Positions 1 through 6,185 of a stretch of 6,185 nucleotides of DNA are shown here, piece after piece. The notes under the pieces were generated by a model that was not told where the DNA came from, searched no databases, and was given only the letters and a program-made list of their open reading frames with translations. This DNA is from a virus. Lineage: Duplodnaviria; Heunggongvirae; Uroviricota; Caudoviricetes. Where the stretch lies: IMG/VR virus record IMGVR_UViG_648276662_000013, one strand, 5' to 3'. Position 1 is the stretch's first letter. The number at the start of each line of letters is the position of its first letter. The position numbers and the translations under genes were made by a program.

Positions 1-1194
1 GAGCAGATGCGTAATCTTATTACAGCATTCCCAGAAGAGTTTGAGGAAGTCCGTAAAGGGATGAGTTATGTCGATGATGCTCAAAGGGATGATTATGGCA
101 ATCTGGCGCTCAAAGCACAGGTAGCCTCATCGCTTGGTCAGGGCGCATTTGGCAGGTTCATGATGGATAATGAGCAGGAGATGCGTCGTTTAGGTATCCC
201 TCCAGAAACTATTGCGGAAATGCAGGTTAATGACCCGCAGGGCTTCCAGCATTTCGCAGGTAATCTGGCGCTGTTTTCTCTCGGTCATGAGAAGTATTTC
301 GATATCAAAGATCAAATGGAAGGTCGGGATATTGAGCGTGGCAAGTTGGCAGAGACAATCCGCAGCAATCAGGCTGGCGAAGCACTTCAGGCGAGAGGGC
401 AGGATATTAGCCGAGCAAATGCGTTAACGTCAGCATATGCACCAACAGCAGCAATGCAGAATTACAATCAGTACGCGCAAATGTTAAAGGCGGATCCAGA
501 GGGGGCGGCGGCATTTGCGGCAGCGGCTGGAATTAATACAAACGCCAAAAAATTAATGAGTGTTAGAGAAAACGATGATGGCACTGTCACAAAATACTAC
601 ACAGACGGAAGTGAAGAGCAGGGAAAACTAAACCAGCCAATATCTGGAGATGGGTTTCGTCCAATAGCTTTGCCAACAGCCCAAAAGATCATGGAAAAGT
701 CGCCAGAAGGGGCTAAAAAAGCTGCTGGATTTGCATACAGGGTTAGGGATGCTCTTGATTCAATAGATACACTGAAAGACCAGCTTAGCCCACAGCGAGT
801 GGCGATCATTAATAATGCTTTGGGTAATGGGACGCTGGCTAACTTAACGCTCAGCCCAGCAGAGCAGCAATACGTTGTTAATGCTAATGACGCAATAATG
901 GCAATACTCCGTCAGGAAACAGGGGCATCTATCCTACCAGCTGAAATGTCCAAATATTATCAAATGTATTTCCCTCAGCCTGGTGATTCCACAAAAACCA
1001 TTGATACCAAGCGCCGGAAGATGGAAAACCAGTTCAATTCGCTGAAAGCTGCTTCTGGTCGAACTTATGATGCTTTGCGGGTTATTTCAGCAGTTGACAG
1101 AGGAACTGCTTCTTCGTCGCAGACATTGCCGCAATCTGAGCAGGTATCACAGCCAGCAGCCAGCAGTAACTTTTCTTCACTATGGGGTGATTAA
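1..1194 (+). CDS. 5'-partial hypothetical protein (at least 397 aa in window), hydrophilic with no TM segment and a Ser/Gln-rich C-terminal tail; candidate phage virion/internal (DNA-ejection-type) protein, product is inference only
   Basis: Open frame runs from base 1 with no in-frame stop before the first ATG at 7, so the gene probably starts upstream of the window. Stop TAA 1192-1194 overlaps the next ATG 1194-1196 (TAATG), indicating an operon with translational coupling. ORFs 212..427(+) and 597..809(-) inside it are short shadow ORFs. Confidence 0.8.
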   Translation, partial: EQMRNLITAFPEEFEEVRKGMSYVDDAQRDDYGNLALKAQVASSLGQGAFGRFMMDNEQEMRRLGIPPETIAEMQVNDPQGFQHFAGNLALFSLGHEKYFDIKDQMEGRDIERGKLAETIRSNQAGEALQARGQDISRANALTSAYAPTAAMQNYNQYAQMLKADPEGAAAFAAAAGINTNAKKLMSVRENDDGTVTKYYTDGSEEQGKLNQPISGDGFRPIALPTAQKIMEKSPEGAKKAAGFAYRVRDALDSIDTLKDQLSPQRVAIINNALGNGTLANLTLSPAEQQYVVNANDAIMAILRQETGASILPAEMSKYYQMYFPQPGDSTKTIDTKRRKMENQFNSLKAASGRTYDALRVISAVDRGTASSSQTLPQSEQVSQPAASSNFSSLWGD

Positions 1195-3299
1195 TGGCTA
1201 AAGCATGGAAAGATGTTATCGCCTCTCCACAGTATCAGGCGTTAGCACCAGAACAAAAAGCGCAGGCTCAGGAGCAATACTTCAATGAAGTCGTGGCCCC
1301 GCAAGCCGGAGAAAGTGTAGAGCAGGCTAAGCAGGCTTTTTATGCTGCCTATCCACTACCATCAACGAATGAAATAGACCGATCCCAATCAGCAACTCAA
1401 AATATTCAACATACATCATCTGATAATTCTCTTGCGTCAGGGTATGCAAAGTTAGCTACTCAGCAAAGAGAGGGGCTTGAGCGTTCAGCAGAACAGGGAG
1501 CCAGTCTTGGGGCTGCGATGCGCGATGCTATAACAGGCGAAAGCCGAATGACTCCAGAGATGGAGAGACTGCAAAATGTCGCCTCTGCCCCAGAATTGAA
1601 CTCACTAAGCATGGATGCCCTAAAGGCTGGATGGTCTCAACTTTTCGGCTCTGACGCGTCTCAGGAAAAGATTCTTCAGGGAATGGGGGCGACATTAAGG
1701 CAGGATGAGAAGGGGAATACTATCGTTTCTCTGCCATCAGGTGATTATGCCCTGAACAAGCCGGGTTTATCACCGCAAGACCTGACCTCGTTTCTTGCTA
1801 ATGCGTTGGCGTTTACACCAGCGGGCAGGGCTGGAACGGTGCTTGGTGCCATAGGAAAATCAGCAGCTACAGATTTAGCACTACAGGGAGCCACCAGCCT
1901 TGCTGGTGGAGAAGATATTGATCCGTTACAAACGGTAATTTCTGCTGGCATTGGTGGTATTGGTAAGGGGCTGGAAAATACAGCGAGTGCGGTTTCGAGG
2001 GCTGTTCGTGGTGATATGTCGCCTGAAGCAAAGGCTGCTGTCGACTTTGCATCGGAAAGAAATCTGCCGTTAATGACCAGTGACATGCTGAAAGATAAAA
2101 CCTTTATGCAGAGTCAGGCTCAGACATTAGGCGAAAGAGTTCCTTTTTTTGGAACCGGTAAGAATCGGCTGAATCAACAACAAGCACGAGAAAATTTAGT
2201 CAGAACATTTAGCGATGGTCTGGGTGGCATTTCTGATAAACAGCTTTATGAATCTGCGACTAAAGGGCAACAAAAATTCATTGAGGCAGCAGGAAAGCGA
2301 TATAACCGCATAATTGACGCTATGGGGGATACCCCTGTCGATCTCTCAAACACGGTAAAAGCTATCGACAATCAGATTGCCGTGTTAAGCCGCCCGGGCA
2401 AATCTCAGGATAGAGCCGCGGTAAAAGTCTTGCAGCAATTTAAAGACGATATCACCAGCGGACCAAATGACCTGCGTCTGGCGAGGGAAAACAGAACCGA
2501 TCTTCGAAAGCGATTTATGGCGTCATCTGACACTGTTGATAAAGATACGCTCCAGAAAGCCAGCGATATTATCTACAAGGCATATACGGCGGATATGAAA
2601 AAAGCCGTAGCCAAAAATCTTGGAGCAGACGAAGCCATTAATATGGCAAGGGTTGATCGCTCATGGTCTAAATTCAATGACATGATGGGAAGAACGCGCG
2701 TTCAAAAGGCAATAGCCAGCGGCAAGGCCACGCCTGAGGATGTAACAAAACTCGTTTTTAGCCAAAGCCCATCAGAACGTTCTCAGCTTTACAGGCTTCT
2801 GGATGACAATGGTAGGCAAAACGCACGAGCAGCCATAGTTCAGAATGCTGTAGATAAGGCGACTGATCCGTCTGGAAATATCAGTGTTGAGAAGTTTATT
2901 AATGCGTTACACCGGAACAGGAAGCAATCAGCAACTTTCTTTAAAGGCGTACATGGAAAGGAACTGGACGGCGTTATTAAATACCTCAACGATACAAGAC
3001 ACGCGGCAAAAGCGAACGTTCAAAACTTAAATGGTCAGCAGCTTTATGGATTGTTAGTTGGTGGTGGCATCATAAACGCAGCAGTATTAGCGGGGATGCT
3101 AAAAACGGCTGCGTTTGTTGTTCCTGCTGCTGGTGCCGTAGGCGGAGCAGCGAAGGCATACGAAAGCCCTGTTATACGAAATGCCTTGTTACGTCTGGCA
3201 AATACGCCAAAAGGTAGCACAGCATATGACAGAGCGATCAGTACGGTCACACAATCGCTCACCAGAGTCGCACAGGCATCACAAAAAGAATCTCAATAA
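1194..3299 (+). CDS. 701-aa hypothetical protein: Ala/Gln-rich N-terminus, Gly/Ala-rich middle, C-terminal ~37-residue hydrophobic helical hairpin; candidate membrane-inserting virion/ejection-type protein (function not established)
   Basis: 2.1 kb ORF whose ATG overlaps the upstream stop, with a G-rich SD-like GGGGTG at 1184-1189. Hairpin LYGLLVGGGIINAAVLAGML-KT-AAFVVPAAGAVGGAA is residues 617-653, about nt 3042-3152. Stop TAA 3297-3299 is followed by a hairpin + T-run. Antisense ORFs 1745..2086, 1867..2052 and 3044..3262 are shadows. Confidence 0.85.
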   Translation: MAKAWKDVIASPQYQALAPEQKAQAQEQYFNEVVAPQAGESVEQAKQAFYAAYPLPSTNEIDRSQSATQNIQHTSSDNSLASGYAKLATQQREGLERSAEQGASLGAAMRDAITGESRMTPEMERLQNVASAPELNSLSMDALKAGWSQLFGSDASQEKILQGMGATLRQDEKGNTIVSLPSGDYALNKPGLSPQDLTSFLANALAFTPAGRAGTVLGAIGKSAATDLALQGATSLAGGEDIDPLQTVISAGIGGIGKGLENTASAVSRAVRGDMSPEAKAAVDFASERNLPLMTSDMLKDKTFMQSQAQTLGERVPFFGTGKNRLNQQQARENLVRTFSDGLGGISDKQLYESATKGQQKFIEAAGKRYNRIIDAMGDTPVDLSNTVKAIDNQIAVLSRPGKSQDRAAVKVLQQFKDDITSGPNDLRLARENRTDLRKRFMASSDTVDKDTLQKASDIIYKAYTADMKKAVAKNLGADEAINMARVDRSWSKFNDMMGRTRVQKAIASGKATPEDVTKLVFSQSPSERSQLYRLLDDNGRQNARAAIVQNAVDKATDPSGNISVEKFINALHRNRKQSATFFKGVHGKELDGVIKYLNDTRHAAKANVQNLNGQQLYGLLVGGGIINAAVLAGMLKTAAFVVPAAGAVGGAAKAYESPVIRNALLRLANTPKGSTAYDRAISTVTQSLTRVAQASQKESQ

Positions 3300-3303
3300 C
3301 TGG

Positions 3304-3326
3304 TTAGCCATGGATGGCTAATTTTT
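3304..3326 (+). terminator. Candidate intrinsic terminator of the + strand two-gene operon
   Basis: Perfect inverted repeat TTAGCCAT-GG-ATGGCTAA (3304-3321) followed by TTTTT (3322-3326), starting 5 nt after the stop of the 701-aa gene. Stem is only moderately GC-rich; it overlaps the stop of the convergent minus-strand gene. Confidence 0.5.
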
Positions 3327-3668
3327 GTTCTTTGCTCTCATCCATAGGTAAAGAAGGGAAAGAACAAGACAAAAAACAGAGAATAGATAACCTACCTCAT
3401 ATGGTGCGCCAAAAAAATTAGCTATTGATACGGGCAAAAAAGCTGAAGCGATCAAAATTGAAAGGCAAAAAATAAGCCCAGTAATATAGTTTATTAAATT
3501 CTTAAATGAGAAACGTTTTGCTTGATTTACGGTCTTAACGAACGATCGCTTAACGACGGATAAAAGCAAATAGATGGCGACAGTTGCTAATGCCCCTTTC
3601 CACCAGTCTGGATATAGTTTTGCGACAATCAGACCAAGTAAAACCATGATGACAGCCTGAGCATTCAC
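3318..3668 (-). CDS. Small polytopic membrane protein (about 116 aa from the GTG start, 4 predicted TM helices); candidate superinfection-exclusion/immunity-type accessory protein
   Basis: ORF track gives 3318..3737 (139 aa) from an ATG with no SD. An in-frame GTG at 3666-3668 is preceded by GGGAGG (complement of 3675-3680) with a 6-nt spacer, so it is the more likely start. Four hydrophobic stretches: AQAVIMVLLGLIVAKLY, ALATVAIYLLLSVV, LINYITGLIFCLSILIASAFLPV, VGYLFSVFCLVLSLLYLWM. The 3' two-thirds (about 3320-3560) is visibly AT-rich versus flanks (not computed). A 420-nt stop-free frame in AT-rich DNA is unlikely by chance. Confidence 0.6.
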   Translation of the reverse strand: MNAQAVIMVLLGLIVAKLYPDWWKGALATVAIYLLLSVVKRSFVKTVNQAKRFSFKNLINYITGLIFCLSILIASAFLPVSIANFFGAPYEVGYLFSVFCLVLSLLYLWMRAKNKN

Positions 3669-3783
3669 ACCAACCCTCCCTTTAGCTTTGTTTAGAATGG
3701 CAATCATCATATATCCAAGACATGGCATTTGGTACATAGCTTGGGTCGGGATTTCAAATCCGCTCCCAGTTGATGGGGCCGTT

Positions 3784-3794
3784 ACAGTACGCGC
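3784..3794. repeat. Degenerate copy (core only) of the (CG)n-core motif: ACAGTACGCGC
   Basis: Matches the core of the 3854-3877 motif, same orientation. Confidence 0.35.
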
Positions 3795-3853
3795 ATATCC
3801 GCTTTATGTGAAACAGGAAGATTTTTCTGATATCACTGCCACAGCAAAACACC

Positions 3854-3877
3854 AATTTCGTGACCAGTACGCGCGCG
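3854..3877. repeat. Copy of a ~24-bp motif AATTTCGTGACCAGTACGCGCGCG (alternating purine-pyrimidine CG core)
   Basis: Near-identical to copies at 4141-4163 and 5772-5796. Lies in non-coding DNA. Confidence 0.7.
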
Positions 3878-3885
3878 AGGGGTAT

Positions 3886-3909
3886 CAGTTGCAAAATTTT
3901 TTGCAACTG
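3886..3909. promoter_or_regulatory. Perfect 24-bp palindrome CAGTTGCAAAA-TT-TTTTGCAACTG; candidate dimeric-protein operator or cruciform/hairpin
   Basis: 11-bp arms are exact reverse complements with a 2-bp centre. Sits exactly between motif copies at 3854-3877 and 3915-3930. No U-tract after the stem, so not a canonical terminator. Confidence 0.5.
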
Positions 3910-3914
3910 CGTCC

Positions 3915-3930
3915 GACCAGTACGCACACG
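3915..3930. repeat. Partial copy of the (CG)n-core motif: GACCAGTACGCACACG
   Basis: Core GACCAGTACGC identical to the 3863-3873 part of the full copy; about 52 bp downstream of it, same orientation. Confidence 0.5.
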
Positions 3931-4140
3931 ATGGCGGGGAGCACCATAAAACTGTTCTCTACATAAGACAGAGTGGTGGTGATGTGTTGATTATCGGCGT
4001 ATATGCGCACAGGACGCGCTATGACGATGTTTTATGCGGGTACACTAATCACATGTATCTGGTGTGATAAATCGCGTTACATGACCTCTCATGTTGTGCT
4101 GGTGGTTATCACGACTTTCTGAATCTGGCCTTTGCCTGAT

Positions 4141-4163
4141 ATTTTGCGACAAGTACGCGCGCG
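4141..4163. repeat. Copy of the ~24-bp motif: ATTTTGCGACAAGTACGCGCGCG
   Basis: AAGTACGCGCGCG core plus TTT-GCGAC 5' part, same orientation as other copies. Lies about 30 bp beyond the 3' end of the minus-strand 73-aa gene. Confidence 0.7.
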
Positions 4164-4191
4164 TAGCATCGACAGCATACACATTGGATAT

Positions 4192-4492: not shown

Positions 4493-4948
4493 TTATACGC
4501 TGACCTTACAATCAATCACCGCTTTTAACTTTTCAGCATTGCTTCCCTGACGCTTCCACGCGCTGTAAATATCTTTATCCCACGCTTTACCAGCTTTTGT
4601 TTGATAGCCTGCTTCATTGATCCGTTCAGCTATCACACGCCCATTATCAAATCCCTGTTGGATGGTATCGGCAATGATCTTTATAACTGCCGTTTCGTTA
4701 TATGGCTTTGGTGGGATGTTCGGCTTTCCGGCAATAAGCGACGCAGCGGCTTTTTCCATGCGCTCCACCAGCCCAAGCATTCGTGAATCAATAGACTTTT
4801 CCGGCTGTCCCAGCTTCATGCGAATCGCATCAACAAGCCAGGAGGTTTTATCCCCTCCAGAAGCGAGAACAGACCGATTAAACTCATCCTGCAATTCAGA
4901 TGGGATGCGGAACGCGACCAGATTAGATTTGCTCATTGCAAAGACCAT
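4493..4948 (-). CDS. Ribbon-helix-helix (CopG/Arc/MetJ-type) DNA-binding protein with an uncharacterised ~100-aa C-terminal domain; candidate repressor/regulator of the divergent control region
   Basis: N-terminal NLVAFRIPSELQDEFNRSVLASGGDKTSWLVDAIRMKL fits the RHH pattern (beta-strand with alternating hydrophobics, helix A, G-x-T/S turn, helix B). Neither ATG (complement of 4946-4948 or 4934-4936) has a clear SD, so the start is uncertain and could be leaderless. Opposite-strand ORFs 4601..4786 and 4617..5021 are Ser/Cys-rich shadows. Confidence 0.75.
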   Translation of the reverse strand: MVFAMSKSNLVAFRIPSELQDEFNRSVLASGGDKTSWLVDAIRMKLGQPEKSIDSRMLGLVERMEKAAASLIAGKPNIPPKPYNETAVIKIIADTIQQGFDNGRVIAERINEAGYQTKAGKAWDKDIYSAWKRQGSNAEKLKAVIDCKVSV

Positions 4949-4963
4949 ATCAGTGAGTAATAT

Positions 4964-4998
4964 CCATACAGTATACCACTGTATAACACTGTTATACG
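4964..4998. promoter_or_regulatory. Operator-like decamer repeats/palindrome in the divergent promoter region
   Basis: ATACAGT-ATACC-ACTGTAT inverted repeat (4966-4984) plus tandem related decamers CACTGTATAA / CACTGTTATAC (4977-4997), immediately upstream (minus strand) of the RHH gene start. Confidence 0.5.
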
Positions 4999-5050
4999 CT
5001 CAAATATCAGCCAGAAAATAACGGGCCAATCACAAATCTATCGCTGTGTT

Positions 5051-5101
5051 GTTGGTTCAGAGCTGGGCTGTGTTGGTTCAAAATGAGTTGATGTTGGTTC
5101 A
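5051..5101. repeat. Three direct copies of 9-mer GTTGGTTCA at exact 21-bp phasing (iteron-like)
   Basis: Copies at 5051-5059, 5072-5080 and 5093-5101, each preceded by TGTT/GTGTT. The 21-bp spacing is two helical turns. Confidence 0.75.
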
Positions 5102-5144
5102 ATATTTTAGAAAAAACACAATAAAAACAACGCTCTTTACAAAT

Positions 5145-5171
5145 TGAACCAACTGAACCAACTGAACCAAC
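5145..5171. repeat. Three head-to-tail tandem copies of TGAACCAAC, the reverse complement of the 5051-5101 iteron
   Basis: TGAACCAAC x3 at 5145-5153, 5154-5162 and 5163-5171. Separated from the direct copies by a 43-bp AT-rich spacer (5102-5144). Overlaps the -35 region of the rightward gene. Confidence 0.75.
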
Positions 5172-5188
5172 ACCTTTTTGCTTATCTA

Positions 5189-5207: not shown

Positions 5208-5495
5208 ATGATAAGGGACAGGAAAGCTGAAGAGCTGGAGTCAAAAGGGCTATACCGGAGAGCTGCCGCACGATGGGCAGAAGTCATGATGCTGGCAGAT
5301 GGCGATAAAGAACGTGAACATGCAGCAAAAAGACGCTCTGAATGTATCCGTAAGGCGGCACGCCCACCAGCAACTACAGACAGATTCGGAGATTTAAGAC
5401 AGGCAGTTAAGCGGACTCATTCGGCTCTTGGTATGGATGAGGAAGCGAGAGGGTACTTCAGGCGTTATCGCGATAAAGATTGCCAGAGACAGTAA
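5208..5495 (+). CDS. 95-aa basic, helix-rich small regulator; PerC/Pch-family-like transcriptional activator (by recall, unverified)
   Basis: ATG with good SD. N-terminal KAEELESKGLYRRAAARWAEVM resembles, from memory, the conserved core of PerC-family activators (Pfam PF06069). Divergently arranged from the RHH gene across a repeat-rich control region. Confidence 0.7.
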   Translation: MIRDRKAEELESKGLYRRAAARWAEVMMLADGDKEREHAAKRRSECIRKAARPPATTDRFGDLRQAVKRTHSALGMDEEARGYFRRYRDKDCQRQ

Positions 5496-5613
5496 TGCTC
5501 TCTCTCTGTTTTGGCAAATTCCCCCTCACTTTGAAGGGATCGGAGCTATAAAAATGGTGTTATCCGGCTTCCTCAAATTGAGGTTTCCGAAAAAATCAAT
5601 GGGTTAGGTCATC

Positions 5614-5627: not shown

Positions 5628-5771
5628 TCTGCCAGCCAACGCAATTTCTCGTTGGCGAAAATATCAGGTATTTACTGAACGAACGGTCTACCAGTCTATT
5701 CAGTTACCAGTTGCACATGGCTGTTTCATGTGAGAACGGAGGTTTTTTCGGACATCACTATTGGTTACAGC

Positions 5772-5796
5772 AATTTCACGAGCAATACGCGCGCGC
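5772..5796. repeat. Remote copy of the ~24-bp (CG)n-core motif: AATTTCACGAGCAATACGCGCGCGC
   Basis: Same orientation and same AATTTC-N-GA-N-CAATACGCGCGCG architecture as the copy at 3854-3877, about 1.9 kb away in another non-coding stretch. Preceded by hairpin CACATG-GCTGTTT-CATGTG (5714-5732) and a T6 run (5743-5748). Confidence 0.65.
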
Positions 5797-5880
5797 AGGA
5801 CAACAAGCCTGAACATGGTTACACACCTCGATCGTGAGGGATGTAGACAATGGCTTCTGGCCAAAGCACCCGAAAAAACC

Positions 5881-6052: not shown

Positions 6053-6185
6053 TTCCCCGCAACTTCAATTCTGTTTTGCGTGCCTGCTCCAGATTTTGCG
6101 ATGTTTTTTTGCCCAGCACACTGAGAACGTGAGATACTCACAACTGTATATAAATGGGTCTTCCCCGATCATGGTGGGAAGACTC

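Follow-up and report, generated by a model that had tools for sequence, protein, structure and literature searches.

Apparent small-terminase gene fragments form a co-oriented array, a candidate packaging signal, around a palindrome of an EcCIMP1-type chromosomal island

The packaging signal (pac) of phage Sf6 reportedly lies within the part of gene 1 which encodes the DNA-binding domain of the small terminase, TerS. P22-like phages place pac inside terS, the 22-bp pac of P22 being situated inside gene 3 (PMC9611059, PMC8022706). In vitro work failed to define the recognition sequence of the Sf6-type small terminases (PMC9611059). The EcCIMP1 type of chromosomal island was described by Pick et al. 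2025 (PMC11773190), in whose experiments EcCIMP1 was induced and transduced, at a low frequency, by the P22-like podovirus Kapi1, while a chromosomal marker was not transduced. No terminase or capsid genes could be identified in EcCIMP1 and the authors stated that its packaging mechanism is unknown (PMC11773190).

The window, i.e., the entire stretch of 6,185 nucleotides analyzed here, is part of a phage-inducible chromosomal island of the EcCIMP1 type and not a free phage. Such an island is a satellite of P22-like podoviruses, with ejection-protein genes and no terminase. In the E. coli chromosome, the island genes follow the order int-alpA-antA/B-DUF4222-'ash'-primase-gp20/gp16 ejection genes-...-PerC; the features of the window are collected in Table 1. 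No TerS homologue was detected in the satellite loci by tblastn or among the window proteins with Pfam. EcCIMP1 itself, moved by Kapi1, contains the same non-coding module (3738–4172) with 96% identity, which places the window among elements packaged by a helper and missing a TerS of their own.

About 545 E. coli genomes contain the module at 95–99% identity (544 of the 5426 complete genomes, ~10%). The original prediction had called this region gene-free, in agreement with most of the RefSeq homologues, where no gene is annotated. At least 80% of the module was covered in 523 records and the wider segment 3300–4500 was common to 28 records only. The homology between islands broke off recurrently at 4172 on the one side and at 3663/3665, 3743, or 3754 on the other. 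The body of the small gene at 3318–3737, whose hydrophobic sequence suggests a membrane protein, was swapped for other alleles in related islands with the first ~15 codons kept, and to the right of 4172 two alternative modules occurred: the genes for the 73-aa and 151-aa proteins or, in other islands including EcCIMP1, alpA_1. Since the module is this well conserved and its flanks break off, a non-coding module persists here while its neighbors are exchanged.

Table 1. Coordinates of the genes, repeats, and other features of the window.
Feature	Position	Strand	Remarks
P22 gp20-like ejection-protein gene	7–1194	+	Pfam Inj_translocase 1.7e-38; RefSeq 'phage DNA ejection protein / injection protein'
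gp16-like ejection-protein gene	1194–3299	+	RefSeq 'phage DNA ejection protein / injection protein'
Small hypothetical-protein gene	3318–3737	-	RefSeq start 3707; start abuts the array
Conserved gene-free module holding the repeat array	3738–4172	+	435 bp; gene-free stretch reaches 4191
Degenerate motif copy A, ACAGTACGCGCATATCC	3784–3800	+	..QYAH.. in one frame, as in copy C; read from sequence
Repeat unit B	3816–3882	+	Sub-motif X GGAAGATTTTTCTGATATCACTGCC 3816–3840 and sub-motif Y TTTCGTGACCAGTACGCGCGCGAGGGG 3856–3882; in-frame ..AKHQFRDQYAREG
Inverted repeat CAGTTGCAAAA-TT-TTTTGCAACTG	3886–3909	no strand	11-bp arms; within the 5' half of repeat unit C
Motif copy C, GACCAGTACGCACACGATGG	3915–3934	+	Least conserved copy
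Repeat unit D (..TTTTGCGACAAGTACGCGCGCGTAGCATCGA)	4113–4172	+	14/14-nt match to Kapi1 terS; reads ..FCDKYARVA
Two hypothetical genes, 73 aa and 151 aa	4192–4413, 4493–4948	-	
PerC-family gene	5208–5495		
Repeat unit E	5741–5813	+	Downstream of perC; reads ..YWLQQFHEQYARAGQQA followed by a stop; at another module junction

Several other repeats were noted in the window. Six or seven TTGAACCAAC/GTTGGTTCA repeats (5040–5178) bracket AT-rich DNA separating the 151-aa gene from perC, and a second, inverted copy of the set lies directly downstream of the primase gene; such repeats were also located in EcCIMP1 (L233 2616–2857 and 11296–11403) and in the loci L127 (7701–7821) and L134 (4396–4516). As this layout resembles the ori and crr iteron sets of P4, the repeats probably mark the replication origin and the cis-replication region of the satellite. 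An exact inverted repeat, GTATAACACTGTTATAC (4981–4997, 8-bp arms, 1-nt center), just upstream of the 151-aa gene start is a candidate operator in a divergent control region. Another one, GTCTTCCC-cgatcatggt-GGGAAGAC (6158–6183, 8-bp arms), occupies the extreme end of the window, near the boundary between the island and the chromosome next to yicG. Downstream of perC, 60 nt (5549–5608) are 93% identical to Kapi1 (L138) 13227–13286 in the anti-repressor gene Kapi1_032, this being the sole DNA similarity of the window to the helper at the BLAST level.

The original prediction singled out a perfect 24-bp palindrome between two copies of a (CG)n-core motif. An exact inverted repeat with 11-bp arms is indeed present at 3886–3909 and is the longest hairpin-type repeat of the window; its central TT is not self-complementary, hence the repeat is not a perfect 24-bp palindrome and the wording was a slight overstatement. 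Its rarity within 6 kb was judged correctly: of 2000 first-order Markov randomizations of the window, 0.8% contained a repeat whose arms reached 11 bp or more and whose loop did not exceed 4 nt. Both flanking motif copies, placed at 3854 and 3915, are real and lie on the + strand (the extended motif begins at 3854, and TTTCGT at 3856). The stem of the palindrome is AT-rich; the letters after it are CGTCCGACC (+ strand) and ATACCCCTC (- strand).

Variation of the palindrome was followed in 58 copies of the module from RefSeq, IMG/VR, and metagenomes, samples that are not independent. The center was TT in 16 copies, AA in 29, A in five, AG in four, CT in one, and deleted in three. The left arm was invariant in all copies bearing the palindrome, and the outer 1–2 bp of the right arm carried uncompensated changes, so that the full 11-bp arms were retained in only 21 of 55 copies. 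In three copies (L003, L145, and L172), the palindrome was lost via a clean 53-bp deletion which ends in motif copies B and C, and L003 is an otherwise intact island. The palindrome, included in the EcCIMP1 module, is confined to the lineage of the window and missing from the equivalent motif arrays of divergent satellites. Because otherwise intact islands do without it, the palindrome is not required, and being lineage-specific and dispensable it was rated as accessory or neutral. Quasi-palindrome template switching is a known source of center flips and changes in A/T-run length in hairpin-prone DNA. The flips between TT and AA, the A/T runs of varying length, and the constant left arm fit such a mutational signature, which bears out the proposed cruciform-prone character of the locus and says nothing of function. 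Altogether, the palindrome appears to be a dispensable local feature, ordinary and hairpin-prone.

A role of the palindrome as the operator of a dimeric regulator, or as an RNA hairpin acting in processing or stability of a - strand transcript starting at the 151-aa and 73-aa genes and continuing into the 3318–3737 gene, is quite doubtful. As RNA, the palindrome would form a stable stem (-15.5 kcal/mol, z from -3.3 to -3.7), it combines dyad symmetry, an invariant left arm, and a freely varying center, and it is situated upstream of the start of a - strand gene. However, a scan of 3738–4191 for sigma-70 promoters and terminators gave none, and no second copy of the palindrome or of its half-site exists in the island or in the helper Kapi1. 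The uncompensated outer-arm changes and the deletion in intact islands such as L003 speak against such a role, and so does EcCIMP1, in which the flanking genes differ and the module is the same.

Of the functions suggested for the palindrome, a termination hairpin found no support: the stem is AT-rich, no T/U run follows, and the terminator scan was negative for 3886–3909. With E values up to 1 admitted, Rfam 15 matched no part of the window, and the whole region folded no better than shuffles on both strands (z -1.05 and -1.35). No fit of the IHF consensus WATCARNNNNTTR was seen at the palindrome by eye. The idea of a composite regulatory site stood insofar as the palindrome and the flanking motifs form one composite non-coding element, and the specific functions proposed for it were not supported. 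The conservation expected for the palindrome together with its flanking motif held only in part, given its deletion in three of the 58 homologous copies and its absence from the divergent arrays. The original observation is thus essentially right and its interpretation only partly so; the interest lies in the surrounding repeats, whose origin in a phage small-terminase gene the original prediction missed, the palindrome alone being minor.

Three further candidates for the identity of the region were rejected. A target of the C4/CI immunity RNA of the P4/P1 type is contradicted by the lack of complementarity of at least 9 nt between the C4/isrK RNAs of EcCIMP1 and either the motif or the palindrome, and P4 is devoid of the motif. 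The EHEC sRNA Esr41 belongs to another island, OI-43, and ends in a poly-U terminator. A supposed att site in the alternative left flank is merely the terminator hairpin of the upstream gene.

The surrounding repeats are all on the + strand, reading GACCAGTACGCGCGCG at 3862, GACCAGTACGCACACG at 3915, GACAAGTACGCGCGCG at 4148, and GAGCAATACGCGCGCG at 5780, with a weak copy at 3784. RTACGCRCRCG matched the window five times versus 0.40 matches expected, a count reached by none of 200 shuffles. Window positions 4146–4159 proved identical to Kapi1 18879–18892, inside terS, and the 20-mer TTTCGNGACMAGTACGCGCG, with up to four mismatches allowed, occurred once in the 39.4-kb Kapi1 genome, at 18875–18892 in terS. 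When the Kapi1 terS region was compared with the 21.5-kb EcCIMP1 locus, the three best short matches were the three good motif copies, all falling on one common spot. Unit B was the best tblastn match of Kapi1 TerS in the window, and a TerS-domain profile, itself built from motif-selected sequences, matched unit B at 3844–3876 (i-E 0.0033) and unit E at 5768–5848 (i-E 0.013). Judging from these matches, the (CG)n-core motif is a non-coding, decayed copy of a segment of Sf6-type terS of roughly 55 nt. The identity to the helper extends over 12–18 nt at a single place inside terS with E of about 0.05 per comparison. Sequences derived from terS are expected to share some DNA similarity, pac site or no, as they encode the conserved peptide FRDxYAR.

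The terS segment in question comprises codons about 45–64 (..TVFRWL-x5-FRD(K/Q)YAR..), which close the N-terminal helix-turn-helix DNA-binding domain of TerS. Kapi1 TerS reads ..TVFRWLAKHEDFRDKYAKA.. at this point, and from nt 100 to 240 the terS of Kapi1 does not differ from gene 1 of Sf6. The segment encodes K59, a residue whose mutation lowers DNA binding by Sf6 TerS (PMC9611059). The left arm of the palindrome, GTTGCAAAA, can be aligned to the codons for ..L-A-K.., which read TTGGCAAAG in Kapi1 and GCAAAAC in unit B; the right arm resembles the left one copied in inverted orientation. Approximately 30 nt downstream of the motif in Kapi1 terS/Sf6 gene 1 (L138 ~18917–18938), there is another A/T-rich inverted repeat, TTTCGAA-GAGATA-TTCGAAA, which encodes IFEEIFEI; its offset is about that of the palindrome after copy B, which may be a coincidence. 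In related islands, the copy after perC reads ..WRFLVFRDKYARA followed by a stop.

An intact Sf6-type terS gene (PF20901; an ORF of ~140 aa with the helix-turn-helix, the oligomerization core, and the barrel) was not found, each unit holding ~12–27 recognizable codons. The array is not a whole decayed terS gene either, because only the short segment is recognizable and the rest of the 454-nt region shows no resemblance to TerS. The + strand ORF 3688–3966, which overlaps the start of the - strand gene and contains copy B, is in frame with FRDQYARE, but it was rejected as coding since 1-nt indels and the 53-bp deletion break its homologues. Among the 58 module copies, copy B varied at window positions 3861 and 3865, TTTCG[T/A/G]GAC[C/A]AG being common. 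In the terS frame, these are a synonymous third position of Arg and a Q/K change, hence the variation looks coding-like in non-coding DNA; gene conversion by helper terS or matching to different helpers are possible causes. The best conserved copies of EcCIMP1 (B, D, and F) are of the K type, like Kapi1, and its copy C keeps GACCAG.

Scanning IMG/VR with the 20-mer separated two clean classes, ~24 genuine terS loci vs. ~25 satellite loci without terS. The former encode Sf6-type proteins of 140–200 aa with 35–56% identity to Kapi1 TerS, adjoin terL and the portal gene, and contain the motif once each, encoding FRDQYAR. In the latter, which are EcCIMP1-like, the motif resides in ORFs of 10–54 aa, often in 2–4 copies spaced 26–240 bp apart with no helical phasing. 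The 14 satellites examined had 1–4 copies each vs. 0.08 expected per 19 kb; as the distant satellites were found via the Y motif, its presence there is by construction, and their independent evidence consists of copy number, orientation, position, and the X sub-motif only. In all 14, every copy was co-oriented with the direction int->primase->ejection genes, regardless of the direction of local transcription, as would suit a polar role at the DNA level. In many divergent satellites, the cluster is situated between DUF4222 and the 'ash' region; in the lineage of the window, it follows the ejection genes and recurs behind perC. The motif was not found in P4, which uses cos. BLAST of the module and of the concatenated units against the phage database gave no match, because the matches are too short for a database of 2.3 Gb, and a scan of genome contigs with GACMAGTACGCGCGCG returned chance matches only, in high-GC genomes.

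The most divergent satellite, L199, encodes a gp20-like protein that is only 27% identical, and it has a four-unit array at the same map position as the window. Its genes for a primase, an SSB, a DUF2824 protein, and gp7-, gp20-, and gp16-like proteins are followed by a small - strand lipoprotein gene. One unit of the array translates as TVFRWSLRDAEEFRDQYAREG and had Sf6_terminase PF20901 as its sole Pfam match, over a 20-residue stretch and with a weak E of 0.084. The module of the window matched the distant arrays only in the Y motif (3855–3881 and 4140–4165) and in the X sub-motif (3814–3837, GGAAGATTTTTCTGATATCAC, corresponding to the ..TVFRW.. codons); the palindrome was unmatched.

These distributions bear on the view that the motif copies are neutral relics, i.e., decayed terS debris left by phage recombination, with a palindrome that arose by chance or quasi-palindrome correction and a conservation that only mirrors how recently the island has spread. 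Within E. coli, variation is distributed evenly and no stronger conservation could be measured for the motif cores than for the remainder of the module. This agrees with such a view, as do the degenerate copy C, the loss of the palindrome, and the uncompensated changes in its arms. Nevertheless, we regard neutral relics as unlikely: one short piece of terS alone recurs 1–4 times per island where the neighboring proteins are only 27–54% identical, and the copies always have one orientation and often the same map position, whereas the phage loci have a single copy inside terS.

Some additional features of the satellite loci were recorded. L199 (3871–9021) and EcCIMP1 (L233 5481–10649) encode the whole P22-type ejection set (DUF2824/phrog_651, gp7-like, gp20-like, and gp16-like), in some cases with a lytic transglycosylase domain, and no capsid, portal, or terminase genes, which suggests that the satellite replaces the injected proteins of its helper. 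A GC-rich (61%) IMG/VR contig, L191, has four non-coding ..FRDQYARARE-like copies 150–240 bp apart; this motif array and a genuine Sf6-type terS lie ~5 kb apart on the same strand (1549–2124 and 7063–7485, both -). In EcCIMP1, the C4 antisense RNA (L233 16600–16687, -; Rfam, 81 bits) and isrK (16750–16827, -; 69 bits) sit inside the pseudogene CDS of an 'ash family protein', together with stretches of 38–40 nt common with the immunity region of P4 (P4 8608–8646). Therefore, the 'ash' ORF of these islands probably does not encode a protein but represents an RNA immunity locus like that of P4.

The repeats also leave a trace in the mosaic structure of the islands. Homology between islands ends at 4172 in most loci, 5 nt past copy D and directly 3' of unit D, and at unit E it resumes at 5771 in L126 and ends at 5743 in L134/L136. 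Recombination between B and C removes exactly the 53 bp with the palindrome, and the B type, the center type, and the arm end are reshuffled among haplotypes. As read from these junctions, the short motif homologies demonstrably serve as crossover points for deletion and for the exchange of modules between islands. It is nonetheless very unlikely that the copies are primarily recombination sites, with module swapping among satellites as their selected function: crossover at any repeat is an expected by-product, no dedicated recombinase is evident, and both the terS origin and the single orientation of the repeat would be left unexplained.

Still less probable, to the point of being remote, is an anti-helper RNA, a - strand transcript of the array complementary to the helper terS mRNA and damping helper packaging. 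In the window, the array does lie between - strand genes, from which read-through would yield RNA antisense to terS-like sequence. The copies are, however, sense to local transcription in EcCIMP1, after perC, and in the satellite arrays adjacent to 'ash'; moreover, no promoter was found, and a satellite without its own terS needs that of the helper.

Our preferred reading, whose chance we put a little short of even, is that the array is a terS-derived mimic of pac meant for the terminase of the helper, with the palindrome as an accessory or neutral component of one unit. The satellite would present co-oriented terS fragments as its packaging signal, imitating the pac inside Sf6-type terS. TerS/TerL of the helper would recognize the array and begin headful packaging on replicated satellite DNA, and packaging would run from the array in the + direction. 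The palindrome would be at most accessory, for instance by forming a cruciform or an A-tract bend with a TerS site on either side. Its A4T6 tract lies between copies B and C, which are 53 bp apart, i.e., about five helical turns. Since such a tract would bend DNA and the copies have this spacing, it is conceivable, with lambda cosB and SPP1 pac as analogues, that the palindrome helps to wrap DNA on the TerS ring.

A broader proposal, tentative and with the balance rather against it, is that in terminase-less satellites of P22-like phages decayed terS arrays act as portable multi-copy pac sites for any helper with a TerS of that family, that the core TTTCGNGAC(A/C)AGTACGCG is the recognition sequence of the Sf6-type TerS, and that the A/T palindrome is a bend or cruciform aiding in TerS-ring wrapping. 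If the array is a packaging signal, it explains how a terminase-less satellite is mobilized by P22-like phages, predicts that the helpers are phages with an Sf6-type TerS, and offers a concrete candidate for the DNA recognized by Sf6-type small terminases. The islands carry PerC-type virulence regulators and occur in roughly 10% of complete E. coli genomes, and the array also marks the points of module exchange between them. The island family itself is known (2025), and no description of the array or of its terS origin was found in the literature searched.

Among the known systems, the pac of P22 and Sf6, located inside terS (P22 gene 3; reportedly Sf6 gene 1), is alike in that the motif is Sf6-type terS DNA present once in the Kapi1 terS. 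It differs in that the satellite sequence, a candidate pac, is non-coding, multi-copy, decayed, and outside a terS gene. Terminase sites with multiple boxes are familiar from lambda cosB (R3-I1-R2-R1), SPP1 (pacL/pacR), and the hexamer repeats of P1 pac. The array shares with them the repeated short co-oriented boxes and an A/T-rich bendable segment between two of these (B, the A4T6 palindrome, and C), whereas its spacing is irregular across satellites and the A/T palindrome is missing from most arrays. Intrinsic terminators, regulatory hairpins, and the REP/ERIC families are also short stable intergenic hairpins, unlike which the palindrome has an AT-rich stem, no U-tract or Rfam match, and one copy per island.

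The pseudo-pac sites of generalized transduction likewise show short chance or derived similarity to pac outside a phage genome (PMC8494744). The satellite copies differ from these in that they form clusters, point in one direction, and are conserved from one divergent satellite to another, a pattern more suggestive of selection than of chance. Closest in principle are the satellites that borrow or redirect a packaging signal: P4, whose cos equals that of P2, the cos-type SaPIbov5, the E. coli PICIs with cos and Rpp, and the SaPIs with their own TerS and pac. All need a cis signal acceptable to a terminase, and so does the terminase-less EcCIMP1, moved specifically by Kapi1. The known Gram-negative satellites, in contrast, use cos sites, the redirecting protein Rpp (PMC6739421), or their own TerS, and no case of a terS-fragment array used as pac for a headful P22-like helper was found in the literature searched. 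A satellite that has no terminase and presents a multi-copy array of terS fragments to a headful P22-like helper would be a novel form among those that borrow or redirect a packaging signal.
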